Shown: piece by piece, positions 3,987 through 29,900 of the stretch | Numbering within the stretch: position 1 is the stretch's first letter | Layout of the letters: every line of letters starts with the position of its first letter | IMG/VR virus record: IMGVR_UViG_3300033144_001394 | Coordinates: 1 to 57,655 of that record | Strand: one strand, 5' to 3' | Source: a virus | Lineage: Duplodnaviria > Caudoviricetes | DNA: 57,655 nt | Made by a program: the position numbers and the translations under genes | The notes under the pieces: generated by a model | Databases searched by the model: none | The model's input: the letters and a program-made list of their open reading frames with translations, nothing else | What the model was told of the DNA's origin: nothing

Positions 3987-3995
3987 AATAATATT

Positions 3996-6572: not shown

Positions 6573-6629
6573 TAAACCTAAGAGGTTTGTTAAACTTATA
6601 TTATTTTTGAATTAAACTTATAAAGTAAC

Positions 6630-7271
6630 ATGGCAACTTATTTACCAGGTGAATCTGGAATATACCAAATAGTAAACTTAGTATCTCAAAAAAGATATAT
6701 AGGTCTTGCTTCAAATATGAAAACTCGTATGAACGGTCATCTATATGACCTTAGAAGAGGCATCCATGCAAATGCTTATTTACAGAAAGCTTGGAATAAG
6801 TATGGCTCTAAAGCTTTTACCTTTAAATGTTTAGAGAAATGCGCTGTGTCTTCTTTACATTTACGTGAGGATTATTGGGTTCGAGTATTGAAGGTTGATC
6901 AACGATACTATGGTTATAATATTAAACCAACTAATCCTGAAGGTTGTTCTCAACACTCTGAAGAAACTAAGTTTAAGATAAGTAGAGACCATAAGTTTAA
7001 AGGTATAAAACCTGGTATATTATGTCTTAAAAAGAGACAAGAATTAGGAGTTACCGAAAGACAAAGAATTGCTATGCGAGAATCGTTAAAGAAGGTTAAC
7101 TTTTCTAAAGTGCATAGAGAAAAACGAGGAAAGAAGGTTATTAATGTTAAGACTCAAGAAGTATATAGTTCTTTAGCAGAAGTTGCTGAATTACTAGATG
7201 TTCATAAAGGTAGTCTTTCACGTAAACTTTCAGGTAAACGTAATAATAATACACATTATAAATATTTATAG
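6630..7271 (+). mobile_element. Free-standing GIY-YIG homing endonuclease with NUMOD3-like and C-terminal HTH-like DNA-binding motifs
   Basis: GIYQIVNL...YIGLAS...R...H...LQKAWNKYG...E...GYNI; HSEETKFKIS; basic C-terminus. Confidence 0.93.
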
Positions 7272-7273
7272 TT

Positions 7274-10200: not shown

Positions 10201-10312
10201 AATGATATATTTGATAATGTTAGGCTTATTCGGGATAAGGAGAATGGTGGATTCAAGCTTACAGGCAGAATGTATGATGGTCTTAATAAAGAAGGCAAAG
10301 TTAATTGGATAA
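7274..10312 (+). CDS. Large virion cargo/ejection protein; the true C-terminus is probably in the -1 frame ending at 10470
   Basis: 1012-aa ORF between structural genes. The last ~65 aa are atypical, while the -1 frame is open 10105-10470 with normal composition. Confidence 0.7.
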   Translation: MATYLPGVTDYIPQIQPFKPDYNFYSGALQMKQGQYDASHKQLSNLYGSLLNAPMLRDQNIESRDQFFKAINNDIQKISGLDLSLRENVSAASDLFTQIYDNENIVKDMVYTKNYQSELTRAESFRNCVDIEKCGGAYWEDGVKALNYKADEFRKASDQDALGMQNSKFASYQNVMEKAVKLAKDAGLNIEIDQVNGRYIYTTKNGPNLIRPLSDLFTGVFANDPSIQEYYNAQAYVQRKEWIFGNANQYGGEAGAEQAYADQMIQGMQAMFGQMEEDITFQKDMNTGQKSNLEDRITKEGTIPNSPLARQYQALNEYEQQIDATGKVIENTNGYIKNVQDPALRRAMGANLDKVMASFLLQGDITGAAETLAYKDYSVKMEADPYALENVKQSNRLALAERKFQYDIALEKYKLDPEAWEKKQMEIGDIDQNIPNTVDDVTGASEINLDDDGAAVVYEDMIKEGRNDFSKSERVLIKDYLERVKEQSRGEEFKGIASEDLVAFGEAMINEINTEEKYSTFEEGVTSTIKGQRAEGGLRLKEQWDSLSKADKVKAMHTKDFEQYLTADYGSGLSGTAIDNIFDSQIRPIIPKNEDEKVQREYLGAWNTDTGTLNNLSIIDHKEQVLDELNNWFMSENEDVLGKMKGDTGFLEYKPYLDHYFDENFKPRSAREFAHSYLDANPEQDPADPKVLERLMEVYYGDSYGAIKDSPSIYTWMDSRAREGQGGLSNKLLETTLSLLPNPMARRTRTISGLISELPADEQDAAWEKAEKEYGISNPNMNKFITPTGAGLDVAWRNGFSKHATPEGGAMYLGLMGNDSYAARGINYARVDPIAIKSGATMNVMSFFSDVLGASTGDMRLTLEGPQAEMEDVEHKADLMPIFNQLYQDMFNMASPKEGNRPVLNVTYQDIAGGTRDWTALNIKFNEPYMKEYLGSDANKGIFREKEQLTVLLRVHLKLLLKKIYIGQVNMKLKVIMIYLIMLGLFGIRRMVDSSLQAECMMVLIKKAKLIG

Positions 10313-10470
10313 CCCTTAATGAATACTCCCCTCCAGGAACAAGTCCAGACGTAATTAAGAACAGATTTCTTAATGAATTTGCACCTATTATTCAACCTGT
10401 TTATGATGATGAGATGCAATTCTATATGTCTAATCATCCTAATTATACCACCGATCCATCACAACTTTAA
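10105..10470 (+). CDS. Probable frameshifted C-terminal part of the 7274 gene (includes ORF 10270..10470)
   Basis: Open frame REGATNGFAQGTSKTSLEEDLYWTGQHEIKGYNDIFDNVRLIRDKENGGFKLTGR-MYDG...; ends 11 nt before the next ATG. Confidence 0.6.
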   Translation, partial: REGATNGFAQGTSKTSLEEDLYWTGQHEIKGYNDIFDNVRLIRDKENGGFKLTGRMYDGLNKEGKVNWITLNEYSPPGTSPDVIKNRFLNEFAPIIQPVYDDEMQFYMSNHPNYTTDPSQL

Positions 10471-10481
10471 TATTTTAGGTT

Positions 10482-13400: not shown

Positions 13401-16214
13401 ACAAAGGCATTAGAGATTGTCAATAAACATATGGAGATCTCTGGTAAGGAGATTCCAGAACATGTTGCTGAAACTACATTCTCTACCAAGAAAAGACGTA
13501 AGAAGTTCAATGATCGACGTACATATAAAGACCTAGCTGAACAATATGGATTCGATCCGAAGGCAGAGTCATCAGATGTTTCTACTATGGATGTATTAGG
13601 AGCCATTACTGATAGCCCTCATGCAACCAAACGAGAAAAAGCACTTGCTCGAGCATATATGAATCATGTTCCACTTGGAGCTACTATTAAATTTGTAAAG
13701 AACCATGATTCACCAGGATCCTATCAACATGATGATGAAGGTGGGGTAGTTACTATTGACGCTAGATATAGTTCTCGTGAGTATAGGTTAGGTTCATCAC
13801 CTATAGAGTTTGTTATTCTACATGAAGAAACGCATAGACTTACTGTAGAAGCTCTTGCTACAGATGAGGCTTATAATGAACAGATCACCGAACTAAGGGA
13901 GAAGACGCTGGCTCATTACGAGTCAGAAGCAGAAGATAAGACGGAAGGTCTTGTGAGAAGACCAGGTAAACCTTATTACGGTTTAATGGATAATGCGGAG
14001 TTCGTGGCTGAGGCCATGTCCAATTATGTATTCCAAAAGTTTTTAGGTAGTATCCCACATGAGCATAATCCTCAGAATAAAACTATTTGGGATAGCTTTG
14101 TTACACGAGTATTACAAATGCTGAAAAATACTTTCGGTAAAAAGAATACTACGGGTACGGTACTTAATGCAGCTATAGATATCATCACGGGTCAGATCGG
14201 TGGCGTAGATGCTCCTATGACGAAGATGGAGTATGAAGATGCCAAGGAGAAAATAAAAGCTCAACGTGATGAAGCTTTACAAGAACTTCAGGAACAAGCA
14301 GCAGGAGAAATTCATGAAATTGTTCAAGATGACGTAAGTTATTATCGAGGACAGATGGGAGAACCTGAAATAGATGTTGATGGTAATTTAGTTATTTATG
14401 GTAAGATAGATCCTTTATATGAAAAAGCGGGAATAAAAGGGTCTGGTGTATCTATGACCGATAATCTTGATTCAGCCGTAGACTATGGACATGGTCAAGT
14501 AGAAGTAGCTAAGAATTTAGCATCTGATGTCCTTGATGCTGAAGAGATGTTAATGGAAATTGATGAACAAGGCTGGACTCTTATTCAGATTTCAAAAGAT
14601 GCTGTAGATGTAAATAATGTAGTTAGAGAAGCAGGTGAAGTTAAAATAAAAGGTGATGTATTAACTATTCCTAAAGGTAAGTTTAAAGTACAACACATTA
14701 AAGAGGATGGTAGTATAACAATTGGAGAAATAAAAGCTCAACCAACACAACAAGATAGTGGAGGTACCCTGACTCAAACTACTCCGTATGAAACACCAGA
14801 TGGTAAAACAATTCAACTTCCAGGTACAAAAGAACGTGAATGGCCAGGAGCACCACTCCTTGGTGAAGAATGGGTAAGTGCTACCGGTAAGGAATATACA
14901 ATTACCGAGGTAACTGAAAAGGAAGTATATGCTAAGGTTGATGGTAAGAAACGCAAGCCTATCAGTAAGAAAAGCTGGTTAGATAGTCTAGATAACGGTA
15001 AGCTTAAACCATGGGAAGGTGAGTTCGAAGGTGGGATTGTTCCTACGGAAGCCGAAGTAGAAGTTCCACAAGAAGAAATTGATGCGATTCATGAGAAGTT
15101 TGATAAGAAGCTTGGTGCATTAGATAAACGTTATGCTGAGTCTAAAGTAAAAGAAGCTACAGAAGAGGCTGAGGTTGGAGACAAAGCTCAAGCATTTGAA
15201 GTAACAAGAGATACTCCTGTAGAGAGAATGCCAGAACTACTTGTTGAAAGACTGGTTGAAGGTTTTATAAACCGTAATAAAGACATGGAGCTTACTAAAG
15301 AAGATCCAATGCTTCCCGGTTTTGCTGAGATGAATCCCTTGCAAATTTCTCAGAGTAATGCATTTAGAAATTGGGTTAGAGATAGCGGTTTCGCTAAACC
15401 AGAGAAGATAATCGAAACATTTTTTGGACCTAAGAAGACTAGTAAAGATAAGATTAAGACAGAGAAAATGCGTCGTGATCTTGTAGCTCTTGGTGGATAT
15501 ACTCGTGAGGATACTAATATCATGAGTTATGCTGAGATAGAAAATGCTATTGATATAGGATTGAGTAAAGAAGAAGCTGAGGCATCATATGAGGCTGAAG
15601 ATTTAAGTACTGAAGCTAACCTTAAGGAGTTAATTAATGAAGCTAAGGTAGAGATTGTTGAGCTGCTTGCTGAACCTATAACTATGGAGGAGTTTAAAAT
15701 AGCCAAAGCTAAAGCTCAATCTATTTTTACTGAACACATTCTTAAGGGGGATGAGTCATTTACTGCAGCATGGTTTGATGAAGTTATTGAGGATACTTTA
15801 GATAGACTGGCTTTCTCATTTACTGCTGATAAGATTAAGAATGGAATGATTGTTCAAATGAAGAGTGGTCATATGATGGAGGTGGTAAATGCTAATCCTA
15901 AGAACAAAACTATACTGCTTGTAAATCCTAAAACTCAGAATGAATTTAGAGTATATCGAGATAAGGTACAGGAGCAGATCAAATACGTACCGAACGAGGC
16001 TATGAAAGAACCTAGTGTAATTAAGAAGATGACTCCTGAGAAAATTACTCCTAACGATTCAGATACTTCAGATGAAAGCATGAAGGAGACTAAAGAGATC
16101 AAAGATACAGCAAGAGAAGATACCGAGGCTGGTAAGAAAGCCGGTGAGACAGATGAAGATGTAGAAGCACAAAAGCAAAAGAGAAAAGACGCTCTTAAAA
16201 AGAACTGTAAATAG
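10482..16214 (+). CDS. Giant virion cargo (polyvalent) protein, 1910 aa: Gly/Ala-rich hydrophobic N-terminal region, zincin-like metallopeptidase, ADP-ribosyltransferase-like domain
   Basis: HEETH (13821-13835) plus EFVAE; YYRG...VSMTD...AVDY...EAGEV (14337-14642); lies directly upstream of the virion RNAP gene. Confidence 0.75.
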   Translation: MPKLDTHALLTQSLAGMDVSDPSTRDDIDPLNMSGDELLQAINDMPGDKIPGVEPELPTTPETGNPHSNYVRKAWSDFKSTAPSAAFNPLASGQQELFGAGVDHHFYERYYEHPSFDKLGFTPFRDNESFYNENSSALSDLRRTYGEWASLGWLGLKDAAGFGSHSDAKTAKEFEHHMAIGSSTRGGTTEFLNNLFLNTGHTFGILGELAIEEIGLALITGASLGSAAPVTGSIAAARFTRAAMKIKEGFKVSRKIMNTLDNLKDVSKAKKFFLNTRNAAGRFINPLSSTTAFYKAKKSGKLTNLDGLATSTLGFASFYRDVRNIRLAYGESALEGGLVQNQMSKELLAEFIEKNGRPPTDKEADEITNTAIAAGHSAAWQNLPTIFFSNKIVFDNMFKTFSPVKRLTDDIIEVASKGKFSFTKGIGYGKLEKGWKGLVQTAKNPKSYFRSGRNYFKANFAEGLQEIAQETISGATMDYYKNRGSKANILTGGYMNVLGENLEHMASAEGLEIFGSGFLMGGMVQGPQKLITGAWESKGRLSKKGRESYKETKAKKDEQLNKTINILNEFYEDPKKFLAPDLENMMEQHELAAAMIEADNAGDEKTFRDLKTDSHFSHAMTALEMGRFDSMVEQLKEELNLSDEDILAIPGVKSVEGYKASINKAVSRAKDIEKRYDVMQKQFPNPINPNQFSGVERIEAIKAHDAWSEAQKNAIFMGHSFDRTLERMNDILKTAKESSDLNNIPVSDFNKLFNFEDIHIELQDIEAQMKLMDTEEGTASKETKKIRKDRETTYKLLQSYEETMADYVSVGEDTVDAPGSEMTQENKDKFNAAADAFEKYIKHLGQKHNQPIFNDNLAETFQKIVDYFQLKDDSKRLTSAVNTLMNPRAFKEHVQLIAEINQYNYENRKVKIGIMLKAYADAKGENKFLNELYDAGIFFDPEDWTALKENGDRPETFYDVNTKDEIQRGTKKFTKALEIVNKHMEISGKEIPEHVAETTFSTKKRRKKFNDRRTYKDLAEQYGFDPKAESSDVSTMDVLGAITDSPHATKREKALARAYMNHVPLGATIKFVKNHDSPGSYQHDDEGGVVTIDARYSSREYRLGSSPIEFVILHEETHRLTVEALATDEAYNEQITELREKTLAHYESEAEDKTEGLVRRPGKPYYGLMDNAEFVAEAMSNYVFQKFLGSIPHEHNPQNKTIWDSFVTRVLQMLKNTFGKKNTTGTVLNAAIDIITGQIGGVDAPMTKMEYEDAKEKIKAQRDEALQELQEQAAGEIHEIVQDDVSYYRGQMGEPEIDVDGNLVIYGKIDPLYEKAGIKGSGVSMTDNLDSAVDYGHGQVEVAKNLASDVLDAEEMLMEIDEQGWTLIQISKDAVDVNNVVREAGEVKIKGDVLTIPKGKFKVQHIKEDGSITIGEIKAQPTQQDSGGTLTQTTPYETPDGKTIQLPGTKEREWPGAPLLGEEWVSATGKEYTITEVTEKEVYAKVDGKKRKPISKKSWLDSLDNGKLKPWEGEFEGGIVPTEAEVEVPQEEIDAIHEKFDKKLGALDKRYAESKVKEATEEAEVGDKAQAFEVTRDTPVERMPELLVERLVEGFINRNKDMELTKEDPMLPGFAEMNPLQISQSNAFRNWVRDSGFAKPEKIIETFFGPKKTSKDKIKTEKMRRDLVALGGYTREDTNIMSYAEIENAIDIGLSKEEAEASYEAEDLSTEANLKELINEAKVEIVELLAEPITMEEFKIAKAKAQSIFTEHILKGDESFTAAWFDEVIEDTLDRLAFSFTADKIKNGMIVQMKSGHMMEVVNANPKNKTILLVNPKTQNEFRVYRDKVQEQIKYVPNEAMKEPSVIKKMTPEKITPNDSDTSDESMKETKEIKDTAREDTEAGKKAGETDEDVEAQKQKRKDALKKNCK

Positions 16215-19200
16215 ATGGCAATAAATTGTAAGTTGGGTCAAGAGGCTCAGAGAGAGATTAGAACAACAGTAGCAGCTGAACTAACGCAAATGTTAAGAAA
16301 AGGAACTCCCTTTGAACTTAAGTCTTTTATAAAAAATGTATATGATGAGATCAAAGAAGACTTTGGTCATGAAATTGCTATTGATGCAGCTCGTCTTACT
16401 CCTATCTTTATTAAGCAGGTTATCAATAACGATACTCAATTACTTAAGACCTTAATTAAAGATAGAGGTCTTGTTGAATCAGATATTACCAACCTAATCT
16501 TCGAAGTAGAGGAGGATGGTGGTGCTGAATACATGGAAGATTATTTAGGTACGTCTGAGAGTGTAGCAGATATACTTGAAATACTTAATGAGGATCAAGA
16601 CTTTAGAACTGAAGAGGAGATTGATAAGGAGAAGGCTGAAAAGATGGCTGAAGGTACAGCTCCACCAACTCGTCCTGCTTTAACGTTTACTGGATCTACA
16701 GGACAAGTTCCTTCAGTTAGAGAAGAAGAAGGAGAGTTCCAAGCATACGCCCCAACTCTTTTATCCGATCTAGGGCAAGAGGCTTTGTCCATGAAGAAGA
16801 ATGATCCTAATTATAATGTCCCAGATAAACAACAGTCTATTTATTATAAAGTAAAAAGAGCCATTATCAAAGGTTTAGGTCTTGCTGACTATGATAGTTC
16901 ACTTATGGATTTTCAAAGCAAAGGACCTATGTTCCTCAAGGCTGTTTCTTTAAGTGAGATAGCTAAAGGAGATAGAAAGCCAGGTACGTTGTCTGATGCG
17001 CAACTTAAATCAGGCGTTGCTATGATGCTTGTAGATAAGAATGGTAAACCTATGAGATTTGATGCGGAAGGTAATGTAGCAGATGTAGGTACATTAATGT
17101 ATTATAATCTACGTAGGGCCAATAAGAAAGAGATTTACGATAAGGACGGTAATATTAAATTAACTAAGAACGATCGTAAAAGAGCAGAGTCTCTAGCTGC
17201 CATGAAAAACATTACTGTAGCAGAGGCCGAGACTACCATTAAACGAGAGATTAAGCTTATTGAGAGCATTCGTAATTATATTAAGGAAGATGCTAATAAT
17301 AGTATCACCTTTAAGATTAACGGAGGATCTTTAGGTTATTCTCCATTTGACTGGAATGTGCATACTCCAATAAGTGATATTACTTTTGATAGTCCTGATG
17401 AGTTTGATCCAGTAACTGTTATTTCTAACTTCGAGGTACCTGGTTTATTAGAAGGTGAAACATACTTTATTTTAGATTCATTACATGGTAATCCTATTGT
17501 AGCTGAGAGACCCGCTCTTAAGGATACACCCTATGGTGAGTTTCTTACTTCATTGCTTATTGATGATGTGGTGGATAAGTTTGGAGTTCCAATAACCAAC
17601 CAACGTAAACGGAAGATCCTGAATGATTATATTAACACTGAGGAAGGTAATTTTAGATTTTATCCGGATACTGGTGATGTTTTATTATATACTGAAAGAC
17701 TTAAGACTAATACTTCTGAACAACGTGAAATTGCCAGAAAGAAGCTTACAGAACATTTTTCTGTGCTCAGCCCTGTTCGTAGAATTACAACTGACCAAAT
17801 TAATGATCGAAGAAAGATCTCCTCTACTACGCCGAGAGATCAATGGAAACTTAATGACATTCTTGTTTATACAGATAAAGATGGAGGTAAGACCTATCGT
17901 GTTATAGAGTACGCTAAGATTCATACAGCCAAATCTCTTATTAGCGGAAAACTCCAAGATATCAAGGCTATGGATAGACTTGATGATGGTACCGTACGTA
18001 TGATTACTGAGCCGGTATCTTATAAGGAATTCATCAAGAAACATTATACGGTACATCATACACTTAATGGTCAAGATAAGATTGTTAGACTTAATGCCTA
18101 CATGACCTTTGAACCTATGGTTGAAGAGTTGAGTAAGATAGAAGCTGAGGATTATGCTGAAAGTATAATAACCAAGTCTCAAGCTAATAAACCACGTCCA
18201 CAATCATTAACTGATGAGTTTAATGATGATCCTATAGCAAAGCTTATTCAGGAGCATAGAGATAATACTAAGCTACATAAGAATCTTGATCGTAAAGTAG
18301 ATGAGATGAAAGCTACATCTACTCAGATGAAAGAAGCTGAGGAATGGTATAAGAATCATCCACTATCAGAACATTTTCCTCTAAAGGTTTTAATGAAGAT
18401 GGTTAATCAGAAAGGTTCCGCAGTAGCGAGCTGGTCTATGGCCGGTATTACTTTATATAAAGGAGCAGATTTCTCTGATGTATATCATGAGGCATGGCAT
18501 GCGTTCACTCAAGCATATCTAACTAAAGAACAGAAGAAAGAACTTTACAGTGAAGCACGTAAGAAAAAAGGAACCTTTAAAGATCATCATAACAATCTAG
18601 TATCTTTTGCATTTGCTACAGAGTTGCAGCTTGAAGAGTATTTGGCTGAGGAATTTAGAACATATATGTTATCTGGAGGTAAAAACATTAAAAATGCTCC
18701 GGTACGTAATAACATATTCCAGAAGATACTTAATGCACTTAAGGCGTTATTCGAAGGAGTTACGGTTACACAGATGGCATTGGATGAACGTGCTAATGTT
18801 AAGATCAAAGAACTATATGATAAACTTCGTGTAGGTAATCTTACTGAATATACCCACTCTGCAGAGAACGTTCAGTTCGGTGAGTTAAATCAAGGTATAC
18901 AACCTTTTGATGCAGAATCAGATATGCAATACCAGTTGGATTATGAAAATTCACAAGGAATTGTTAATATGATTGATGCTTTAGTATCAGAATGGGCTGA
19001 TGTATTAAATGCTATTCCTGGAGTAACTGACGAAGAAGCATTAAGAATAGCAGCACTTAAAGATCAGGTAGCAAATGGTGAATTAAAAGGAGCAGAGCTT
19101 AAGGAAGCTAAAAATACTATAGAGGGGCTTAAAGCTAAGTCAACCTATAAGTATACCTCTACTCTATTTAATACACAAGAGGATACGAAACGTACTTATA

Positions 19201-22200
19201 AGTATGTAAAAGTTCGTATGGCACAGCTGCATAATGAATTAGAAGCTAAGAGAGAAGCAGCAACCACTGGAACAGAGAAAGCACAATTCGATAAGACCAT
19301 ACGAGATATCTGGTATGCTCTTGTACACTTCGGTGATGTAGAGAACTTTTCTAATAATGCTACGGATGATAGTAACAACGTTAAAGGAGTCATGGCGTAT
19401 CACGCTAAGAAGTCTCGTTACATCATTGAGGAAATTGTAGACTTATTCTTTGCTGAAGATAATATGAGTGAGACTGATCTTATGGTTAAAGGTCGTCAAG
19501 CTATGTATGATAAGTCTGGTAATGAGGTCTCTTCACTTGAGCTTGCTTCTCGTGAGATTGTTTATTTGCTTCATGGGTTGTTTGAAGTGAATGAGGATAC
19601 TGGCGAAATAGGGCAGGATAACTTTGGTGCTCCTAAACTAGCGCCTTTTACTGAGGTGTGGAATAGATTGGCACGGTCTCTTTCTAATAAACCAGGGCCG
19701 GAGGCTATGGAAGCCGCGTTACTTGCAGAGGCGGAGGACTATCCTCCATTCAAGCAGCTGCTTAATAAGCTTGGCCCGCTATCTACTTTATCTACTACAG
19801 AAACAGATTTGTGGTCTAAATTCTGGCAGACATTTAACTTGACTAGAGTTCCTCTAATGCAGATGACTGTAGAAAAGGTTGTTGATGATAAGGGTAATGT
19901 AACATATGAGTCAAAGATAGGTGAGGCATCTGCTGATCATAAAAGAATTGGTCGTGACTGGCAGTCACAATTTGCTTCTGTAATTCCTAGTAATACAAAG
20001 GGTGATCCGGGTTATTATATGAAGAATGATGATGAGGGTAATTATCTTGATGTTAAAAGAGTAATAGAAGATTTTCCATTTTCGGCTTTATCCAATAATG
20101 TTTGGGAGTTCTATAATGCTATTGGCATTAAGCTCTCGGATAAGGATGTCATTCGTAAGGGACTTGAAGATAAAGAGATTATAAAATCAGCTATCTTTTA
20201 TCTTAAACGTCTCTATGTTTTTAGAGGTAAAGATGCCAAAGGCGATGAGGGTTGGAAGATTCGCAGTATGGCTGATCTGAATAAAGATTTGGAGATGCCT
20301 AAATCCAAGCAGAAAAAAGAATTGAAAAAAGGTGAGAAAGCTAAAGTAATTCCATATTTGATTCCTAGTACTCCAGGTGTCGAAAAGTTTTATGTTTATG
20401 GAGAAGGACAAGGTAAGATCTATAAAACGCTAATGGAGCTAGAGGCTAGATACTCGAATACTCTTAATAATTTTATGGTGACTAATGCTGAGGGTAATAC
20501 TCAGTTTGAACATAGTCAAAATAATACACTTACCATTACGGTTAATGCTATTAACTACGCTAAGAGCTATCAGGATTTAATAGATATGCCTCATATGGCT
20601 CATCTCGATATAGAGAGGAACCCATTTGCTAAGGCTTCTATCTGGTTGAATTCTATTTTCCATATGGATGCTAATGATCCAGTTTTATTTGGTCAAAAGC
20701 GTGAGGTTAATGGAGAAGAGGTTAAGCTTCGACTAAACAACCTAAGTGGTGTTATGTTGGAACAGGAAGGAAAAGATACAACAGAAGGTGTAGCCTCAGC
20801 TAAAGCTGATAAGTTTGCTAAGCTGATCATGGATTTTCATTTAAATACTGAAGAACATCTCCCTGAGCTGATGAGACACTCTGATAAAGGAACGTCGTTC
20901 TCTGTTTCTTTAACTAAGATATTTCCTCTGAATGGAGAAGGCTCTAATCAATATATTGATAATGTGACATTCCTAGATGAACCATCTTCCTATAACGGAG
21001 CAGCTGCTAATCTTTTGATTCCTCATATTAATGCTGAGTTGCAGAGGATTAGAATAATGGAGCAGATGTATGCTAAACCAGATGGTCCTTTTGATTTTAG
21101 ATATATGGAGCGTGGTCTTAAATTTACTGCCTTTGATGATATTCTTCTGGATAAAACCAAGGAGCTGATTCTTGAGCAGGATGATCTGATTGAGTATCTT
21201 GATACTGCTACTCCAGAGAGTAATGCTTTGAAGGCAAAGATTGTTCAGGATCTATCCAACTATTTTGCAGAGCAGACTGATACTGTTGTTAAGCTGATGG
21301 TTGGTAATGAGTTTATTTCTGATAGCTTGGTTGATAAGATAGAAGGTACTGCTCGGAATCATCTTCTTCAGTTTGATGATGCGAAGACTAAGAAGGCCTT
21401 AATTAATTCTTATGTCTATAATTCTTTTATCCATAATGTTGAGTCCTTAAGTATCATCTATGGAGATCTAGCGCAGTATAACCACATTAAGGAGGAGTTT
21501 CATAAAAGGAATGCTGGTGCTGGTTCTACTGGTCGAATCTTCCGTACTGATGCTGCCATGAAAAATTACGTCAATAAGATTCGAGGTAGGAAATATTCTG
21601 AGGCTTATGGTGGAGAGAATGGATATAAGGATTTTGATGGTACTATGGAGACAGCTATTATTCAGGATAGTGAGGTTGGTTCTGTTTATCATAAGGAATA
21701 TGCTAAAGCTACTGGTAATAAAGAAGCTGATCCATATGCTAAAGGTAATATGAATGAAGCTGATGCCCAAGGGTATATTAGTTTTGACTCTTATCGTATC
21801 TTAAAAACAGCTCAGGGCGCCTGGTCTGATGAGCATGAAGAATTATACAAAGACATTGTTAATGGTCGTGAGTATGACTCGACTAAGGTTTCTGTATTCT
21901 TTTCTAGTTATAAGGTGCAGTATTTCGGTGCATTGAAAACGGAAGGTCTTCCAGTAACTGCACTTCATAAGTTTAACCTCTTTCCTCTTATACCAACAGC
22001 AATCAAGAATACTAAACTTGAGAAGTTACATGAGAAGATGATGGCTGAAGGTATTGATTATACTTTGTTTGAGTCAGGGTCCAAGGTTGGTACTCTGACA
22101 AATCCTTATGTATTAGATGAGAATGGTAATCCTACAACTGAACTTAATGTTGATGCTGAGGGAAACTTTTTAAGAGATGAGGGATATGATAAGGATCGTA

Positions 22201-25200
22201 AGTTAAGTGAAGTTCCTTTTACCAAGAATACAATCTTCCTGGAGTATCTTAAGGATCAACTTGAGATTGCTCCTAAGTATAAGAACAAGGTGATCTTCTC
22301 GACTCAGATGCGTAAGCTTATTGAAGATGGGCTTATGGAGAATGGTGTCCCTACTGACTTCATGGTTGGTAAGAAAGCTGATGATCGTATTGCTGCTTGG
22401 GATAAGTTGGGTAAAGCTAAAGATGGCGAAGCTAAACGTATTGCTAAGTCTGACCGTTATAGAAAGCTTAAGCGTTATGAACGTAATATTCGTCGACTTA
22501 CCCAGTTAAAGAAAGAGGAGTTACTTCGTGATATTAATTGGAAAGAAACTAAGGATGGAGTAACTGGAAACATCTCGGATCTGCTCAAGTTTGTTCAGAA
22601 AGAATTAACCCGTCAGGATCTAGCTGATCATGAGATTAGATTTTTGGATACTGTGAAAGGAAAGATGCAACATGATGTGTCCCTATCACTCAGTGCAGAT
22701 AAAATAGAACGTCTGCTTAATGCTCTTGTAACAAAGAGGTTAGTGAAGCAGAAGGTTACTGGTGAAGGTTTGATCCAGATATCAGGTGCAATGTTTGAGA
22801 ATATTGCTGATGATGAAGGTCGTAACTATAGTAACCCAACGGATGAAGATAAACGTAAATATGGTACTAATGATTTACCTACGTATCATGAAGGTGCTGA
22901 TGGCAAGACTGTCGCTATGAAGGTTAAGGTTGCTCTTCAGGGGGATTTTAAAAAGCTACTTAAGGCTAAAGATAAAGATGGTAATGAGATAGGTTCAATC
23001 GAACGTCTTAATGCTTTGCTTAAAGATGAAGACTGGCTGAACATGGATGACAATCGCAGAATGATCACTATGGTCGGTGTACGTATTCCAGTTCAGGGAC
23101 TTAACTCTATGGAGTTCATGGAGGTATACGAGTTTCTTCCAACCGAGGCTGGTAATATTATTATTCCGCCTGCCGAGATTGTTGCCAAGACAGGATCCGA
23201 TTTTGATGTTGATAAGTTAACTGTTATGATGCCTAACCTAGCTGTGCTTAACGGTACTACAAAACTTATTAAAGAATTGAATACCGGTAAGAGTTATGAG
23301 ACATTGCAAGATGATGTACGGTCTATTAAAAAGAAGATACAAAGTGTTCGTAAAGAGTTTACTAAAAAGTTTAATGATATAGCTTTTGAGAAGGAAGCTG
23401 CTGAAACGTTTAAAAACGATTGGTATCCTCAGAAGAAAGATGTTGATACCAAATTGGATTACTTCTTGGATCTGCAAGCTGAGTTAAATACTAAGCCAGA
23501 AAAGACTATAGAAGATAAGGAACGTCTCGAGAGAGCTACTAGTGCTATTAAAGCTCTTGAGGCTAAGCTTGATTTACTTGAGACTCAGTTTACAGCTTTT
23601 TTCTCTGAGCTAGAGAATGCTAAGATTCATGAGATATCTGCAGAACAGAAACAAGCCTTAAATCCATTTTATGAAGAGCTTGCCGAAGCACAGAATCTGT
23701 TACATGGTGCTGGTGAGAAAGCAATAGAGAATAACCTTATCGACGATATAAGAGGGATTCTTGAGTTGCCTGAGAATTTCTCCAGTTTAGTACGTCCTAA
23801 TAATATAGATATCCTTGAACCTTTGGCTGAGGAGTTGGGTCCATTAGTTATGGATTTTAATCCCAAGGATACCATTACTGGTGAGACAAGAACTGAAATG
23901 GTAAATGGTAAAGAGAAAGAAGTTATCTCCCCTACTCGCGTACTTGAGGTTCATTATAACTTATATAAGCATGCTTCTAATAAAGTAGGTAAGGAAACAC
24001 TTGGATTAGGTGCTGTTGATAATACATACAATGTAGTTTTTAATAGGATTGGGGCTCGTATGGAACCAACTGCAGGTACAACTACTACTGAGTTTGAAAG
24101 GATTAATGCTCAGATAAAGGCGGGTCGTGAGAAAGATTTGTCTAAGGCCGATTTTAAGAAGTGGAAGAAATATCACCGTCAGAAATTATTTTTACCTCAT
24201 CATACAATTACTGTTGGTGATGAACAAGCTATTTCATTGTCTCATACTATGGATGCTGAGGGGGTTCATAAGATTTCAGATGTCATTAACCAGATGATTA
24301 ATGGATGGGTCGATGTTGCGGCTAATGCTTGGATCTTTAATATACAAGGAAACAAGGAAGTATCTCCTACTTTACTATTTATGATTCAAGCAGGAGTCCC
24401 AATTAAGCATGCTGTATATCTTTCATCTATGCCAATGGTACGTGAATATGTTGAGGAAATGCAGATAGCTAAGAGTATTTTTGCTGAACCTCTTGGTAAG
24501 GCTCCAAGTAATCCAAACTTCTTTCAGAATAAAGCCCGAGCTGAGATCTTATCTAATCCTAAGTATGGATTTAACATGAAGAAAAAAGACTTAGATCCTA
24601 AAGTTATAGGTAAGACAATCAATAATGAGGCGAAAGATAAGATTAAAGGTAAGGTCTTAACTGATGGTCATTTAAGTTCTACTAAGATGAAGACCGTTAT
24701 TACCAAATTTGCTAAGGAGCAGGTTGAAGATAAGGTACATAAGTATTCAGAATTTGAGAGAGCTGCTTTCTTACATTTTTTAGAGATCGAGAATATGGGT
24801 AAGGCGGTACGAGATGTTAAGCTTCGTATGAACGTTGATACCTCTAGATCAGGAACTTTGTTTGAAGCTCAGAACAGAACAATGATGATTGAGGAATTGA
24901 AAGACGATGCCCGGATTCCACATACTATTGTTGATGATATCTTGAATGATTCTCCTATTGGTAGTTTCTATATCCAACCTTTTCAGTTAGAGGTCTGGGG
25001 AGAACTATTCGAACTACGTAACCACGAAAAGGTTAATGAAGTACTTTATGATCTAATGAGTTCTTCTGAAGGTAAAACAATCATCAATGAAACCTTTGGT
25101 AATAATGAACAGTTTGCGAATGCTTTTCGTAATGATCTACCGAGTTTTATCTTTCAAAATGCTGTTCGTAGTTTTGATATTAATAAGATGGATTCTTATC

Positions 25201-26969
25201 GTGGATACATTACCAACAGTACCACGCCAATAGAGACCGTTACTTCACTTGAGCATGGTGCTCTTGTAGTAGATGGCGTCCTCTATTTCGACAGGAACCG
25301 TTTGAAGAAAGACTATGCCCTTAAAGGATATACTGGTGGTCAATATATTCGTCAGGGATTATCTACTGTATCAAGTATGGCTTTCGATACACCTGGTCAG
25401 TATTATAACTTCGTGTTTGAACGTGCATATTTACGCAGTACTTTACCTTATTCTGAGATCAAAGATTCTACTGAGTATCGTCAGAAACGTAACGTAGTAG
25501 CTGTTGAGCTGAAGCCACGTGAGAAAGAAACTAAGGCTAAGTTTGCGGATCGAATTAGTAAGGTGGCTTATGAGAATTATCTACGTGATAAAGCGCTCGA
25601 TAACACATTTAACCACTGGAAGATTTTCCAGAGTGATGACAATTTCGCTCAGCAGTTTTTACAACTACGTCAGACTTATGATGCTTTAGGTAAAAAATAT
25701 AGTATTATAAATCAACTGTCTTCTAATTCTAAGCAAGGCTTGGATATGCAGAATCTTAAGTTGGATGTTACATCCATGAATACTGATAAGATGAATGTGT
25801 ATCATGAAAACCTTATGAAGTTATCTAATCCTAATGAAAAGAAGGTGCCAGATCCTGTAGATAATAAAAGAATTAGTGATTTCTTTAAGCGCTTTTCTAT
25901 TGTAGCGTTACTCCAGTCAGGTCTTGATACGAAGAGTCAGTTCTCTATGGTGCGTATTGTACCACAGAAAGCTTACCTGGATATCATGGCTAAGCCTGTT
26001 AAGAAGTTCGTAACACACTTAGATTGGGCTGTCAAGAAAAATATTACGCCGCAAATTCTGTTAGAGTTCATTGAGCAGTTTCATAAAGTAAACAATGTTA
26101 GTGAGAGAGCTGTTCGAATTAGAGGGAAGAACTATATGAAAGATCAGAATGTTGAGCTTACCTTAGATGATTCTATTGAGCTACTTAAAAAACATAAGGT
26201 AGGAATGCCTTGGTTAAGAATTAATGCAGCTCAAGCTAAGGAGTTAACAGAGAATACTAAAAAACCATGGAAAGGAGCATCTGATTTTATTTATAAAGGC
26301 ATACAATATTTTGTAAGTCTTAGCGAAGATGTTTCTGAGACGACGATTTCTGAGATAGCTCCTGATCCAACTACAAATAAGGAGAGTGGTCAACAAGATA
26401 TTGATGGTACACGTATTCATGGTGGTAATGATTTAGCGTATACCTATGTAGAGAAGTATCCTAAGAAGACTTTCATATACAACAAGGCATTTAATGGAAT
26501 GGGCGGTATAAGAGATCACCAGTTCCAGGAAACTCAAGCAAAGAATACTATAGGTATCACTACTCTGAAGAACTATAGTGGTTTGGATATGAACATTAAA
26601 GATGACCGTAAGGATGGTGTAGCTGTGGTTAATCCACAAGCTAAGGAGGCTATTGATAACGCTATAGAGGAAATACATAAACATCTTAGAACAGGTCAGT
26701 CATTAGTCTTTATGAAAGAAGGTTATGGTCAAGCTATGATTGGAGCGGATCCTCAGAAGGCTTCTATGCCGAATGCTGCTAAAGCTACTGCGACTAAAAC
26801 TTTTATATATTTGTCAGATCAGTTGTACCAGAACTTTGGATATGTTAATCCTAATATGTTAAACCATGCTGACGGTAGAACTATTGTACAGAAAGGTAGA
26901 GACGGAAACTCTCAACCAGCTACGGATGAGATGGTACAAAATTTAATGAATGTTTGTAAAACACAATAG
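16215..26969 (+). CDS. Giant virion-packaged DNA-dependent RNA polymerase polyprotein (crAss/phi14:2 gp66-like) with an N-terminal zincin domain, 3584 aa
   Basis: VGVRIPVQGLNSM...GSDFDVDKL (DFDVD at 23199-23213) is the crAss-type two-barrel RNAP catalytic motif; also NEADAQGY, ESGSKVG, NGWVDVA; HEAWH at 18486-18500 plus EEYLAE. Confidence 0.9.
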   Translation: MAINCKLGQEAQREIRTTVAAELTQMLRKGTPFELKSFIKNVYDEIKEDFGHEIAIDAARLTPIFIKQVINNDTQLLKTLIKDRGLVESDITNLIFEVEEDGGAEYMEDYLGTSESVADILEILNEDQDFRTEEEIDKEKAEKMAEGTAPPTRPALTFTGSTGQVPSVREEEGEFQAYAPTLLSDLGQEALSMKKNDPNYNVPDKQQSIYYKVKRAIIKGLGLADYDSSLMDFQSKGPMFLKAVSLSEIAKGDRKPGTLSDAQLKSGVAMMLVDKNGKPMRFDAEGNVADVGTLMYYNLRRANKKEIYDKDGNIKLTKNDRKRAESLAAMKNITVAEAETTIKREIKLIESIRNYIKEDANNSITFKINGGSLGYSPFDWNVHTPISDITFDSPDEFDPVTVISNFEVPGLLEGETYFILDSLHGNPIVAERPALKDTPYGEFLTSLLIDDVVDKFGVPITNQRKRKILNDYINTEEGNFRFYPDTGDVLLYTERLKTNTSEQREIARKKLTEHFSVLSPVRRITTDQINDRRKISSTTPRDQWKLNDILVYTDKDGGKTYRVIEYAKIHTAKSLISGKLQDIKAMDRLDDGTVRMITEPVSYKEFIKKHYTVHHTLNGQDKIVRLNAYMTFEPMVEELSKIEAEDYAESIITKSQANKPRPQSLTDEFNDDPIAKLIQEHRDNTKLHKNLDRKVDEMKATSTQMKEAEEWYKNHPLSEHFPLKVLMKMVNQKGSAVASWSMAGITLYKGADFSDVYHEAWHAFTQAYLTKEQKKELYSEARKKKGTFKDHHNNLVSFAFATELQLEEYLAEEFRTYMLSGGKNIKNAPVRNNIFQKILNALKALFEGVTVTQMALDERANVKIKELYDKLRVGNLTEYTHSAENVQFGELNQGIQPFDAESDMQYQLDYENSQGIVNMIDALVSEWADVLNAIPGVTDEEALRIAALKDQVANGELKGAELKEAKNTIEGLKAKSTYKYTSTLFNTQEDTKRTYKYVKVRMAQLHNELEAKREAATTGTEKAQFDKTIRDIWYALVHFGDVENFSNNATDDSNNVKGVMAYHAKKSRYIIEEIVDLFFAEDNMSETDLMVKGRQAMYDKSGNEVSSLELASREIVYLLHGLFEVNEDTGEIGQDNFGAPKLAPFTEVWNRLARSLSNKPGPEAMEAALLAEAEDYPPFKQLLNKLGPLSTLSTTETDLWSKFWQTFNLTRVPLMQMTVEKVVDDKGNVTYESKIGEASADHKRIGRDWQSQFASVIPSNTKGDPGYYMKNDDEGNYLDVKRVIEDFPFSALSNNVWEFYNAIGIKLSDKDVIRKGLEDKEIIKSAIFYLKRLYVFRGKDAKGDEGWKIRSMADLNKDLEMPKSKQKKELKKGEKAKVIPYLIPSTPGVEKFYVYGEGQGKIYKTLMELEARYSNTLNNFMVTNAEGNTQFEHSQNNTLTITVNAINYAKSYQDLIDMPHMAHLDIERNPFAKASIWLNSIFHMDANDPVLFGQKREVNGEEVKLRLNNLSGVMLEQEGKDTTEGVASAKADKFAKLIMDFHLNTEEHLPELMRHSDKGTSFSVSLTKIFPLNGEGSNQYIDNVTFLDEPSSYNGAAANLLIPHINAELQRIRIMEQMYAKPDGPFDFRYMERGLKFTAFDDILLDKTKELILEQDDLIEYLDTATPESNALKAKIVQDLSNYFAEQTDTVVKLMVGNEFISDSLVDKIEGTARNHLLQFDDAKTKKALINSYVYNSFIHNVESLSIIYGDLAQYNHIKEEFHKRNAGAGSTGRIFRTDAAMKNYVNKIRGRKYSEAYGGENGYKDFDGTMETAIIQDSEVGSVYHKEYAKATGNKEADPYAKGNMNEADAQGYISFDSYRILKTAQGAWSDEHEELYKDIVNGREYDSTKVSVFFSSYKVQYFGALKTEGLPVTALHKFNLFPLIPTAIKNTKLEKLHEKMMAEGIDYTLFESGSKVGTLTNPYVLDENGNPTTELNVDAEGNFLRDEGYDKDRKLSEVPFTKNTIFLEYLKDQLEIAPKYKNKVIFSTQMRKLIEDGLMENGVPTDFMVGKKADDRIAAWDKLGKAKDGEAKRIAKSDRYRKLKRYERNIRRLTQLKKEELLRDINWKETKDGVTGNISDLLKFVQKELTRQDLADHEIRFLDTVKGKMQHDVSLSLSADKIERLLNALVTKRLVKQKVTGEGLIQISGAMFENIADDEGRNYSNPTDEDKRKYGTNDLPTYHEGADGKTVAMKVKVALQGDFKKLLKAKDKDGNEIGSIERLNALLKDEDWLNMDDNRRMITMVGVRIPVQGLNSMEFMEVYEFLPTEAGNIIIPPAEIVAKTGSDFDVDKLTVMMPNLAVLNGTTKLIKELNTGKSYETLQDDVRSIKKKIQSVRKEFTKKFNDIAFEKEAAETFKNDWYPQKKDVDTKLDYFLDLQAELNTKPEKTIEDKERLERATSAIKALEAKLDLLETQFTAFFSELENAKIHEISAEQKQALNPFYEELAEAQNLLHGAGEKAIENNLIDDIRGILELPENFSSLVRPNNIDILEPLAEELGPLVMDFNPKDTITGETRTEMVNGKEKEVISPTRVLEVHYNLYKHASNKVGKETLGLGAVDNTYNVVFNRIGARMEPTAGTTTTEFERINAQIKAGREKDLSKADFKKWKKYHRQKLFLPHHTITVGDEQAISLSHTMDAEGVHKISDVINQMINGWVDVAANAWIFNIQGNKEVSPTLLFMIQAGVPIKHAVYLSSMPMVREYVEEMQIAKSIFAEPLGKAPSNPNFFQNKARAEILSNPKYGFNMKKKDLDPKVIGKTINNEAKDKIKGKVLTDGHLSSTKMKTVITKFAKEQVEDKVHKYSEFERAAFLHFLEIENMGKAVRDVKLRMNVDTSRSGTLFEAQNRTMMIEELKDDARIPHTIVDDILNDSPIGSFYIQPFQLEVWGELFELRNHEKVNEVLYDLMSSSEGKTIINETFGNNEQFANAFRNDLPSFIFQNAVRSFDINKMDSYRGYITNSTTPIETVTSLEHGALVVDGVLYFDRNRLKKDYALKGYTGGQYIRQGLSTVSSMAFDTPGQYYNFVFERAYLRSTLPYSEIKDSTEYRQKRNVVAVELKPREKETKAKFADRISKVAYENYLRDKALDNTFNHWKIFQSDDNFAQQFLQLRQTYDALGKKYSIINQLSSNSKQGLDMQNLKLDVTSMNTDKMNVYHENLMKLSNPNEKKVPDPVDNKRISDFFKRFSIVALLQSGLDTKSQFSMVRIVPQKAYLDIMAKPVKKFVTHLDWAVKKNITPQILLEFIEQFHKVNNVSERAVRIRGKNYMKDQNVELTLDDSIELLKKHKVGMPWLRINAAQAKELTENTKKPWKGASDFIYKGIQYFVSLSEDVSETTISEIAPDPTTNKESGQQDIDGTRIHGGNDLAYTYVEKYPKKTFIYNKAFNGMGGIRDHQFQETQAKNTIGITTLKNYSGLDMNIKDDRKDGVAVVNPQAKEAIDNAIEEIHKHLRTGQSLVFMKEGYGQAMIGADPQKASMPNAAKATATKTFIYLSDQLYQNFGYVNPNMLNHADGRTIVQKGRDGNSQPATDEMVQNLMNVCKTQ

Positions 26970-26972
26970 ATT

Positions 26973-29900
26973 ATGGCAGCAGTATGTCCCAATAAAAATA
27001 CACCAGAGTGGAAATCCTTAGTTAACGAAGTAGGAGAGTTTGAAGCTTATCGAGACTTCTTAGAATACAACGGGGACATTCGAGGTGCTAGAGTCGTTCG
27101 AAAGAAACTTGCTGTCAGGGCTCGTAATATTCCAGAGAGATTACAGAAGGAGCGTACGACCAGCGCAGGGGTTCCTGTTGCTTTAGATATTTTAGAGAAC
27201 TTAGCTAAAGATCTTGCTGCTAAGTTTGGTGATGAGTATGCTTATCGTGTGGAGCCATATCCTAATAAACCTTGGAAAGGGAAGGTAGAGGCAGCCAGTG
27301 TTGAGAATGGTGGTAAACGTACTATTGTTATTAACAGTGCTAAGGCTACTCTTGATACACCACTTCATGAGTTTAGTCATATTCTTTTGGATATGATTAA
27401 GAATGAGAATCAAGTTCTTTATGCTGAGTTACGTCGAACTATTCCTTTAACTAAAGAAGGTCGAGCCGAATTAGCTCAGGTACGTAAGTATTATCCAGAG
27501 CTTAAGGAAGGTGAGGATATTGATGAAACTATTGTTGAATTAATGGGGCGTCATGCCGCAGATCTAATTAGTACTAAATCAAAACTATATACTTTATTAG
27601 AAAGCATATGGAATAGTATTAAAAAGCATATTGCTAAAATTATATCTGAGGGTACAGGACATACAGTTCAGACAGTAGACCTTGAAAAAGATACTACAAT
27701 AGCAGTACTTGCTGAGTTACTTACAATAAAGAATTTAAAGTTTACAGCAGGAACTCAAGTTAAAGAAAAGTTATCTGAAATAGCAGCAAAGAATAATAAG
27801 CAGATTCAAGAAATGGAGAATCAACTTACTATTATGAATTCTTTAGACGTAGATAATCCAGAGACATCTAATGATCCAGAAGCTCTAGTAAGCTATTATT
27901 CCGATTATAGAATACATGCTATTTCTCGAAAGTCTCTTGATGCGATTAGTGATATAGGAAAGGTTTGGCCTATTATTAAAAAGTATCTATCCGCAACTTC
28001 TGATCCAAGTCAGTTTCATCAAGACACAATAAAGCTTACCAATAAAATGATGGAGATGGGTGCTTCACTTACACCTGAAGAAAAGCTTACAACCTTACGT
28101 CTTAATGATGAGTTTGATAATTGGTTTATGGTGTTTAACTCTTTTAAAAATGAGACTAAAGAAAGTTTTATTAAAGATTTAAAAGATGATCCTAAAGCCC
28201 TTTGGCCCGCAGGAAAGTTTATATCATCAGTAAAGAAGCAGACTGATAATTATTCACAACAAACCACTATTGCAGCTATTACAAGTTCTCTTAGAAATGA
28301 TGAAAGATTTATAACTAAGTTATTTCCAAATGTACACAGTACATATTCTATTGAGGAACAGTTAAATGAAAAAACTATTGCCGATATATCTGCAGTATTA
28401 GAATATAACATAGAGGACTTAAAGATCAATATTAGTAAACCAATTCGAGCTAAGGGTGAGTTTGTTATGAATATTGATAATGTAGGAAGAGGTTTTGAAG
28501 GTGATTTTAAAGATGAAACTATTACTGTCAATATTGATTATAAGACAGATGGTAGCCTCTATGTAGGTTTTAAATCATCTGAATGGCTTTATGGAGATCC
28601 GGTTTGGGTTGTAGATTTTGATAAGGATAAAGCTAAAGTAGGTGATAGAGTTATGCTTAAACAACCTCCTGGTGTAGCAGCTGTGCAGAAGAGACATAAG
28701 ATTTATAATCAACCTTTTGGACAAATTGAGGATATATTAGAAGACGGTACTGTTATTATGGAATTGTTGAATATAAATGATCCATATACAATACTCGATA
28801 CATATCTAAAAGATGATTATCAAATAATAGGTGATCAAACTAGTGGTGTTATAGCGATTTCTCCTGATCTACTTAATTCAGTTGTTACTCAGTCGGGTCG
28901 TGCGGCAAGGGTTATGAGGCAAGTTTTAAAAGAGGTTAGTCGGTATGGTTATAATTTTAATTATACAGCTATTACTTTTGCAGCTTCTGAGAGCGATTGG
29001 GGTAATGAGAGTATGATGCGTCAAGCAATATATCAAGGAATGGCTCAACGAATGTTTGGTAAAGATTTTGCATTAGTTTCTCATAATGTAGCAATAAAGT
29101 CACACGCAGAACTTGAGGCTGAGGCTAGAGATAAATGGATTGCTGAAGGTAAAGATCCTGAGAAGTTTAGTATGAAAACTATAGCCGGTTTAATTAAGCG
29201 AGGGGAGATAACTAATATCAATTATGACCTAGATACTATTGTAATTCCTCAGAGTTATCGTGATGGTTTGTTTGTACAAAAGGATGTTTATCAGAAGGAA
29301 CGTATAGATAGTTCTGTACCAGAAGATGCTGTTGATTCTTTGGCAGGTTTATCTACAGCCCAGAATCCTATTAAAGAAAAACCTCTTTCGCCTGAAGAGA
29401 ATAATAAGATTAGGGCTGTTGAGATAGCAAAAAAACTGAGTAATCAGTTGGATGTAGATTATCAGATGGTCACTTCAGATGAAGCTATGGCTATCACGGC
29501 TAATGCAGAGAACCCGTGGAATGGTCAACCTGCTTTCTTCTTTGGAGGTATAGTATATTTTGTTGGAGATAAGTTGGATACGGATCTTGTGTTACATGAG
29601 TTTGCTCATCCACTACTTAGACAAATTAAAGTTACTAACAAAGAATTGTTTGATAACCTTTATATGCAGTTATCTCAGACCAGTGAAGGTCAGAAGATTA
29701 TTAAGATGGTTAGTGAAAAGTATCCTAACCTGACTGAAGATATGGCTAAGGAAGAAGTTTTAGCTCAGGCGTTAGGTGAAGCGGGGGCTCAGCAACTTGA
29801 TGGTTTAAAACCCCAATCTAAGTTTGCAGCATTTATCAAGGAGTTAATGTATCAGATTAAGCAATTATTACGCGGAAATTTCGGTCAGAATATAAAGATA

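Follow-up and report, generated by a model that had tools for sequence, protein, structure and literature searches.

How do crassviruses, the commonest phages in the human gut, pack a megadalton protein cargo and eject it through a tail channel of 25-50 Å? The question is treated as open in Bayfield 2023 and in the 2026 N4 paper. In this work, we have analysed computationally one 57,655-bp viral contig (IMG/VR record IMGVR_UViG_3300033144_001394, probably a partial genome), which as a whole is called the window, and whose plus-strand genes extend to 34.7 kb and are followed by a minus-strand replication module (DNA polymerase, primase, helicase and exonuclease). Three consecutive giant open reading frames (ORFs) of the plus strand, named P1, P2 and P3, are, judging by motif and alignment evidence, the virion RNA polymerase module of a distant crAss-like phage. 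A first-pass annotation of the window had suggested that cysteines paired across the two gene junctions link these three proteins head to tail. What these cysteines may do is the question addressed below.

Cysteine content of the three giant proteins

The features on which the argument turns are listed by window coordinates; here and throughout, negative cysteine positions are counted from the C-terminal end.

10482..16214, plus strand: P1, first giant cargo protein, 1910 amino acids (aa); sole cysteine at residue 1909 (-2)
16215..26969, plus strand: P2, predicted virion RNA polymerase, 3584 aa; cysteine only at residues 5 and 3581
26973..34733, plus strand: P3, third giant cargo protein, 2586 aa; sole cysteine at residue 5
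16206..16208, plus strand: TGT codon of P1 Cys1909 (C-terminal side of a junction), followed by AAA TAG and then the P2 ATG
16227..16229, plus strand: TGT codon of P2 Cys5 (N-terminal side of a junction), nearly invariant in alignment A3
26955..26957, plus strand: TGT codon of P2 Cys3581 (-4; C-terminal side of a junction), nearly invariant in alignment A5
26985..26987, plus strand: TGT codon of P3 Cys5 (N-terminal side of a junction), the only invariant column in alignment A6
15984..16211, plus strand: C-terminal part of P1 (residues ~1835-1909), predicted to co-fold with the P2 N-terminus
16221..16589, plus strand: N-terminal part of P2 (residues 3-125), predicted to co-fold with the P1 C-terminus
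23199..23213, plus strand: DFDVD catalytic-type motif of crAss-type two-barrel RNA polymerases, at P2 residue 2329

A script count gives exactly 4 cysteines in the 8,080 residues of P1, P2 and P3, all at inner ends, and 0 at the two outer ends (the P1 N-terminus and the P3 C-terminus). This bears out what had been read by eye in the first-pass annotation, namely that there are only four cysteines, each within 5 residues of a terminus at an internal junction, that their codons start at 16206, 16227, 26955 and 26985, and that the outer ends have none; no internal cysteine had been missed. Given 4 cysteines in 8,080 residues, the chance of finding one in each of the four inner-terminal segments of 5 residues is 3.5e-12. 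In-frame TGY codons number 4 in 8,080, against ~230 expected from the base composition and against 104 and 427 TGY in the other two frames of the same DNA; it is thus at the level of the protein that cysteine is depleted. In the window's 20 ORFs of the minus strand, 90 of 6,536 residues are cysteine (1.38%), in contrast to 0.05% in the three giants.

Assignment of P1, P2 and P3

No Pfam or PHROGs family passes for P1, P2 or P3, the only listing being DUF7831 in P2 (18.2 bits, with a cut-off of 27). The assignment comes from comparison with cultured phages. Residues 1729-2344 of P2 align to residues 859-1376 of g066 of phage phi14:2, which carries DFDID at residue 1361 (E 3.5e-20, in a small local database; E 2e-17 for P2 against phi14:2 by tblastn), and gp50 of crAss001 also aligns to P2 across the region with DFDxD, the motif given for crAss-type two-barrel RNA polymerases in the preprint of Drobysheva et al. 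Judging by the DFDVD motif and the gp66 (g066) alignment, P2 is a crAss-type virion RNA polymerase. P3 resembles crAss001 gp49 and phi14:2 g065 over its residues 1954-2439. P1 matches the N-terminal half of natural P1-P2 fusions, which match crAss001 gp47 and phi14:2 g067; the fused protein of locus L183, for instance, aligns both to window P1 (185-993) and to crAss001 gp47 (51-752). By its position and by similarity through these fused forms, P1 is of the same family as phi14:2 g067 and crAss001 gp47.

Packaging of this module in the virion and its ejection into the host are known for phi14:2 and crAss001 only, from Bayfield 2023 and the Drobysheva preprint. As described in the former, crAss001 gp47, gp49 and gp50 were found in virions, are thought to lie in the cargo zone of the capsid and must partly unfold to exit; the latter notes that the three module proteins are fused in some phages.

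Conservation in related loci

Related loci were collected in three sets. The first, from a search with P2, comprised 80 viral-contig loci at 30-46% identity, which gave 58 clusters after dereplication at 70% identity. The second, from a search with an alignment of the RNA polymerase core (A1), added 79 loci, down to 23% identity, and the pooled set of 160 loci fell into 95 clusters. The third, biased towards the gut, was obtained with alignment A4 and comprised 38 clusters. IMG/VR holds ~530 matches to the polymerase core in all, from which each core-alignment scan took the best 80; 52 distinct, mostly near-identical loci (L082-L133) from a crAss001 gp50 search added no diversity and were left out of the analysis. 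Chains in the pooled set were built by a rule blind to cysteine, which joined adjacent ORFs of at least 1,400 aa (for the first member of a chain) or at least 1,000 aa (for later members), together with small ORFs sandwiched between them.

In the first set, a cysteine within 10 residues of the end is present at 109/110 inner C-ends and 108/110 inner N-ends, while outer ends with cysteine number 0/45 on the N side and 0/51 on the C side. All three misses are artefacts, two of them (L006) coming from an unrelated 219-aa ORF taken in by the adjacency rule and the third (L026) from a poly-A frameshift, the true start reading MVNC. Counted from the chain end, the cysteine lies at 3-6 on the N side and at 1-10 on the C side. 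On the N side it occupies position 3, 4, 5 or 6 in 60, 25, 18 and 5 cases and never position 2; on the C side it is at -1 in 42 cases, at -2 in 36, at -3 in 17 and further in for 14.

The pooled set gives the same picture at 139/139 inner N-ends and 138/139 inner C-ends (the one miss, in L181, is weighed below), with 44 internal cysteines in 579,088 residues (0.0076%). Apparent outer ends with cysteine (11 + 4) were checked one by one, and 14 of them have a partner that carries the matching cysteine and is truncated by the locus edge, lies more than 150 nucleotides (nt) away across a spacer, or stands beyond an inserted ORF; for the fifteenth, L145, the locus ends too soon for a partner to be visible. 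In the gut-biased set, cysteine is present at 30/31 inner C-ends and 30/31 inner N-ends, the exception being L278, where a cysteine-rich 163-aa ORF is inserted between two giants that carry the pair; in three clusters of this set an ORF called from its first ATG is too long, its likely start being an internal Met-Ser-Cys. Internal cysteine is more frequent in this set than in the mostly environmental lineages (0.14% versus 0.0076%), which may reflect an oxygen-poor habitat, and the junction pair is still kept.

Our results show that the cysteine rule spans the order Crassvirales and beyond, among lineages with only 15-40% identity, and as a pattern it is very strongly supported. Conservation of terminal cysteine at junctions only, which the first-pass annotation had named as a check, holds across all three locus sets.

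Small cysteine-rich ORFs inserted between chain members were seen in L206 (261 aa) and L278 (the 163-aa ORF mentioned above), and in both the flanking giants keep their junction cysteines; that these inserts might be mobile endonucleases is a guess.

Terminal cysteines and chain breaks

The key result of this work is that the number of terminal cysteines is twice the number of chain breaks, from 0 to 3 breaks. Where an additional break is present, an additional pair is found. A link protein of 170-655 aa stands between P2 and P3 in L023, L024, L026, L038, L052, L058, L169-L172, L188, L191 and L192, and it has exactly two cysteines, at about position 3 and about -1; in L179 those of the link are called at 25 and -3, its start being probably mis-called. 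The C-terminal ~120 residues of the link correspond to the extreme C-terminus of P2 in relatives where P2 is unsplit and has no cysteine at the equivalent place. Likewise, P3 of L294 is split into proteins of 1,167 aa (cysteines at 4 and -2) and 1,193 aa (cysteine at 4), that is, with a new pair.

Where a break is missing, so is the pair. The P1-P2 fusions (4,275-4,902 aa; L166, L183, L195, L200, L201, L209, L215 and phage Fpv2) have their only cysteine at the C-end, the N-end and the fused site being free of it, and in L166, L183 and L209 alignment identifies the N-part as P1 and the C-part as P2. In the P2-P3 fusions of gut lineages and of L275, the N-side cysteine is present and that of the C-end absent, and in L262 a single 5,642-aa ORF spans all of P1, P2 and P3 without one cysteine. 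In L183 and L209 each of the two chains has exactly one cysteine, and therefore any disulfide there must be intermolecular. Self-cyclisation of P2 through its own N- and C-side cysteines was rejected as a candidate, being impossible in chains with a single cysteine and less parsimonious elsewhere.

The breaks do not fall at one shared site. A conserved zincin-like HExxH landmark stands 670-1,430 residues into P2 in the clade of the window, ~210 residues into it in L181 and L191, and 187 residues before the end of P1 in crAss001; a module of ~300 aa is free-standing in L191, forms the P3 N-terminus in some lineages and lies inside the C-part of P2 in others. Break positions are thus not homologous, and the cysteines are at the ends wherever the ends fall.

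These counts also bear on the idea that the terminal residues are "cysteine switches", capping the zinc of zincin-like protease domains and keeping them latent until ejection. HExxH motifs do occur in all three proteins of the window (P1 at 1114; P2, HEAWH at 758; P3, HEFSH at 132 and HEFAH at 875), and a HEFxH motif lies ~130 residues from the P3 cysteine. However, the cysteine count follows the breaks and not the motif: phi14:2 has one HExxH against four terminal cysteines, the middle piece of L294 has two terminal cysteines and no HExxH, and the cysteine-free fusion of L262 keeps HELVH. We regard this explanation as very improbable.

Cultured and named phages

The same arrangement can be read in phages that have been named, with cysteine positions given in parentheses.

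phi14:2: g067 (-1), g066 (3, -2), g065 (3)
crAss001: gp47 (-3), gp50 (5, -1079, -9), gp49 (5)
crAss002: gp32 (-2), gp33 with an internal start reading MSC
CrAssphage LMMB (p-crAssphage): P1 (-562, -533, -2), then a 4,070-aa P2-P3 fusion starting MSC
Flavobacterium phage Fpv2: 4,401 aa (-2), then 1,596 aa (3, -136)
Leptolyngbya phage Lbo-JY46: 1,552 aa (-1), then 2,748 aa (4)

For Lbo-JY46, an interpretation as a P2-P3 fusion was considered and rejected, as protein f aligns to P3 only and has no DFDxD. Protein e aligns to crAss001 gp47, to phi14:2 g067 and to the ORFs upstream of P2 in four loci, not to window P1. With e in the P1 family and f in that of P3, the two are therefore read as a P1-P3 pair. 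Among the 40 of 102 matching records listed by a tblastn search with the RNA polymerase core, none is from this phage.

Some annotated or first-ATG starts look too long. That of crAss002 gp33 (L136 9270-22007) appears 32 codons too long, and for the P2-P3 fusion in L220, L223, L228, L232, L239 and others the excess appears to be 14-32 codons, an internal Met-Ser-Cys fitting the start of close relatives. Upstream of the module, CrAssphage LMMB has an 861-aa protein (L217 745-3330) with an orphan cysteine at -2, and Lbo-JY46 a 674-aa protein (L135 2626-4650) with one at position 5; neither has a matching partner adjoining it, and both, which have no assigned family, are possibly cargo-like.

Signals in DNA or translation

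Could the pattern be a by-product of the junctions themselves, for instance of TGY codons within a translational coupling signal, or of stop codon read-through? In the window, P1, P2 and P3 share one frame, with only TAG as separator and spacers of 0 and 3 nt, as such an origin would have it. Against it, the frame offsets at 137 junctions of relatives are spread over the three classes (47, 32 and 58) and the stops are TAA in 110, TAG in 14 and TGA in 13; the cysteine pair is still kept across spacers of 227-525 nt and across inserted ORFs; the position of the cysteine varies in codon units; and the window has no tRNA gene. Moreover, crAss001 gp47 is not adjacent to gp50 and lies on the strand opposite to gp50 and gp49, and it keeps its C-terminal cysteine. 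We give an origin in DNA or translation signals a negligible probability.

The TAG stops of the window lie at 16212-16214 and 26967-26969, and read-through of both would yield one protein of ~8,080 aa, a layout that is not kept in relatives. Read-through of in-frame TAG separators was rejected as a general explanation by the varied frames and stops just described.

The position of crAss001 gp47 also qualifies one point of the first-pass annotation, which had the proteins joined in gene order. The order in question is better given as that of a polyprotein than as that of the genes.

Terminal alignments and a predicted complex

What is conserved around the junctions? The terminal 220 residues were aligned for the P1 C-end (A2, 45 sequences), the P2 N-end (A3), the P2 C-end (A5) and the P3 N-end (A6). 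These regions are weakly conserved, with a mean column identity of 16-26%. Within them, the cysteine is the only invariant column in A2 and the sole invariant column in A6, where a HEFxH consensus stands ~130 residues from it; it is nearly invariant in A3, alongside L7, A55, P63 and F98, and in A5, alongside G139. No conserved His, Asp or Glu and no second conserved cysteine was found near the ends in the four alignments.

This composition can be set against the possibility that a metal ion (Zn, Fe or Cu), held by both thiols of a pair, bridges the chain ends. The first-pass annotation had allowed for a metal, and one cysteine on each side of every break fits any bridge made by two thiols. Nevertheless, Zn or Fe sites usually need more than two ligands, the cysteine is the only conserved potential ligand near each end, and its offset varies over the ranges given above, unlike a fixed metal motif; the 3-4 or more conserved ligands that a zinc-hook-like junction would have are absent. 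We consider a metal bridge improbable.

A split intein or another form of trans-splicing was likewise rejected, since intein halves, of tens to ~100 residues, would not fit between the chain ends and cysteines so close to them (1-10 on the C side, 3-6 on the N side); nor do P1, P2 or P3 match an intein family at or above the Pfam curated cut-off.

The first junction was also modelled as a complex of the last 220 residues of P1 and the first 220 of P2, each with a 45-row alignment. The predicted complex scores 0.83, and the best of 3 controls 0.01. The mark applied to this score is reached by 58/80 solved complexes and by 2/110 mismatched pairs, counts that are rough for this case, as custom alignments were used. 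At least 67% of contacts are common to the runs, and the partner has a pLDDT (predicted local distance difference test) of at least 64. The predicted interface is made mostly of residues 145-219 of the P1 fragment (217-219 included) and of residues 3-125 of P2 (3-18 included), so that both cysteines are part of it, in a model that gives no Cys-Cys distance. A multimer model of the terminal pairs had been proposed in the first-pass annotation, and for this junction the predicted interface, as a model, speaks in its favour.

A proposed disulfide-joined chain and the evidence against it

We hold it very likely that the junction pair forms some thiol-based link between neighbouring chain ends. As to its nature, the sequence patterns lead us to favour, with reserve, inter-chain disulfides that would make a "virtual polyprotein" for packaging and ejection. 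The head-to-tail linkage of the first-pass annotation is supported in this respect, every computational test that it proposed being in its favour. In wider terms, we incline slightly towards the view that in Crassvirales and their environmental relatives the virion RNA polymerase and its partners (0.6-1 MDa) would be injected as one thread, joined end-to-end by disulfides at the chain ends. A redox-cleavable staple may replace the peptide bond wherever evolution has cut an ancestral polyprotein.

We propose the following sequence of events. The two ends at each cut would co-fold into a shared domain, and once the virion leaves the reducing cytoplasm their two thiols would oxidise to an inter-chain disulfide. 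P1-S-S-P2-S-S-P3 would then be one covalent and nearly linear thread, with stubs of only 1-6 residues, and the covalent chain would fix 1:1:1 packaging. While the unfolded cargo passes the narrow tail channel, the linked chain would stay continuous, each protein drawing the next one in. Cysteine would be excluded elsewhere because other disulfides would make loops or wrong cross-links that cannot thread. Finally, the host cytoplasm may reduce the links and free the parts. Two elements of this scheme have a counterpart in the literature: inter-subunit disulfides in crAss001 virions, as stated in the text of Bayfield 2023, and a cargo that must unfold to pass the tail, as stated there and in that of the 2026 N4 paper.

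Several points weigh against this proposal. Natural P1-P2 and P1-P2-P3 fusions exist, and separation by reduction is therefore not obligatory, so that the release step is not required. Some ends have their cysteine further in, at -10 in L008/L057 and L156 and at -19 in L181, the one C-end miss of the pooled set. In L196, an ORF of 2,044 aa without cysteine (2073-8207) and one of 2,207 aa without an N-end cysteine (8450-15073) are separated by a gap of 243 nt; this may be a split without cysteine or, equally, an assembly error or a broken P1-P2 fusion. In the predicted complex, the Cys219-Cys5 pair is not among the contacts of lowest error, both residues being placed in the interface only. Gut crassviruses live without oxygen, where thiol oxidation is less certain. 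Mass spectrometry of both reduced and unreduced virions was part of the work of Bayfield et al., whose main text reports no cargo cross-link. Lastly, homodimeric pairing of the same cysteine from two copies is compatible with sequence alone.

The last point leads to the alternative that the terminal cysteines have some other thiol role, be it in a homodimer disulfide, in transient attachment to a packaging factor, scaffold or portal, or in redox sensing that controls when the split domains hold together. Sequence alone is silent on which thiols pair, and chains with a single cysteine formally allow a homodimer. This alternative does not account, however, for cysteine on both sides of each break and on none of the outer ends of the first set; it leaves the joint loss of cysteine in fusions and its joint gain at new splits unexplained; and the complex model puts two different ends in one interface. 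We think it rather unlikely, and the inter-chain disulfide remains our preferred explanation. A search with Pfam for a thiol oxidase or thioredoxin found none in ten minus-strand ORFs of the window, a weak negative, the contig being probably a partial genome.

Neighbouring genes

Upstream of the module, an ORF with a GIY-YIG-type homing endonuclease assignment (6630-7271; PHROG 314 and 7168) begins MATYLPG, as does the next gene (7274-10312), with codons that are different but synonymous. This ORF is probably an inserted endonuclease gene that has brought along the 5' end of the gene it targets, in recoded form. The protein encoded at 7274-10312, immediately upstream of P1 (~1,000 aa, starting MATY), is not part of the chain; its cysteine pair 128/134 is kept in many relatives (L001-L027 and others), which have few other cysteines. 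At the left end of the window, a plus-strand ORF (16-3126) encodes a protein of 1,036 aa whose residues 143-201 match the endolysin family phrog_2649 (E 1.6e-5), and which may be a virion-borne cell-wall hydrolase. By local blastp, the upstream plus-strand ORFs of the window gave no match to crAss001 gp43-46, phi14:2 g068-070 and others.

Meaning and comparison with known systems

The crAss-type RNA polymerase module, cysteine suppression in another phage family and virion disulfides were already known; for the terminal-cysteine rule at chain breaks and the idea of a disulfide-stapled polyprotein, no published description was found in a search that covered main texts. Bayfield 2023, Yutin 2021, the Drobysheva preprint and the 2026 N4 paper do not use the word "cysteine" in their main texts; the extended tables of Bayfield 2023 on disulfides and mass spectrometry are possibly relevant to cargo cross-links.

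If the proposal is true, no earlier case of phage cargo concatenated covalently head to tail would be known. The chain would explain why the proteins of the module are freely split, fused and reshuffled, how cargo stoichiometry and ejection order are fixed, and why cysteine is so extremely avoided. Annotators could recognise module boundaries and correct start codons by the rule, and the system would be a natural design for redox-released protein delivery. The strictness of the rule makes the head-to-tail link cheaply testable in cultured phages (phi14:2, crAss001 and Fpv2).

By function, the closest analogue is found in two-chain (A-B) toxins, in which a single inter-chain disulfide is reduced after translocation. 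The likeness to the proposed chain is functional only, in that one disulfide holds two chains together through an unfolded membrane crossing and is reducible in the cytosol; the proteins and the machinery are unrelated, the toxin chains arise by proteolytic nicking of one precursor and not from separate genes, and no homology is claimed.

Among phages, the Schitoviridae (N4 gp50, gp51 and gp52; DEV gp71, gp72 and gp73) eject a giant RNA polymerase and companion proteins, all nearly free of cysteine, as are P1-P3. The text of the DEV paper notes this suppression and proposes that it avoids cross-linking during passage, and in our own count N4 gp50, gp51 and gp52 contain 0 cysteines. The difference is that in Schitoviridae there is no cysteine at all and the polymerase is a single chain, whereas the crAss-type module keeps one cysteine at each end that faces a break.

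The closest comparison is with the modules of phi14:2 (gp67, gp66 and gp65) and crAss001 (gp47, gp50 and gp49), which are the same proteins as P1-P3, giant, virion-packaged and sometimes fused, and which share the terminal-cysteine pattern. The proteins of the window are larger (1910, 3584 and 2586 aa), with 22-25% identity over parts of their length, and their P1-P2 break sits elsewhere relative to the zincin domain. In crAss001, the inter-subunit disulfides of the portal-vertex protein gp57, the tail hub and the ring proteins, which stabilise the virion, show that such bonds do arise between proteins of crassvirus particles (Bayfield 2023). Those bonds fix a static structure, while the links that we propose would join a mobile cargo end-to-end.

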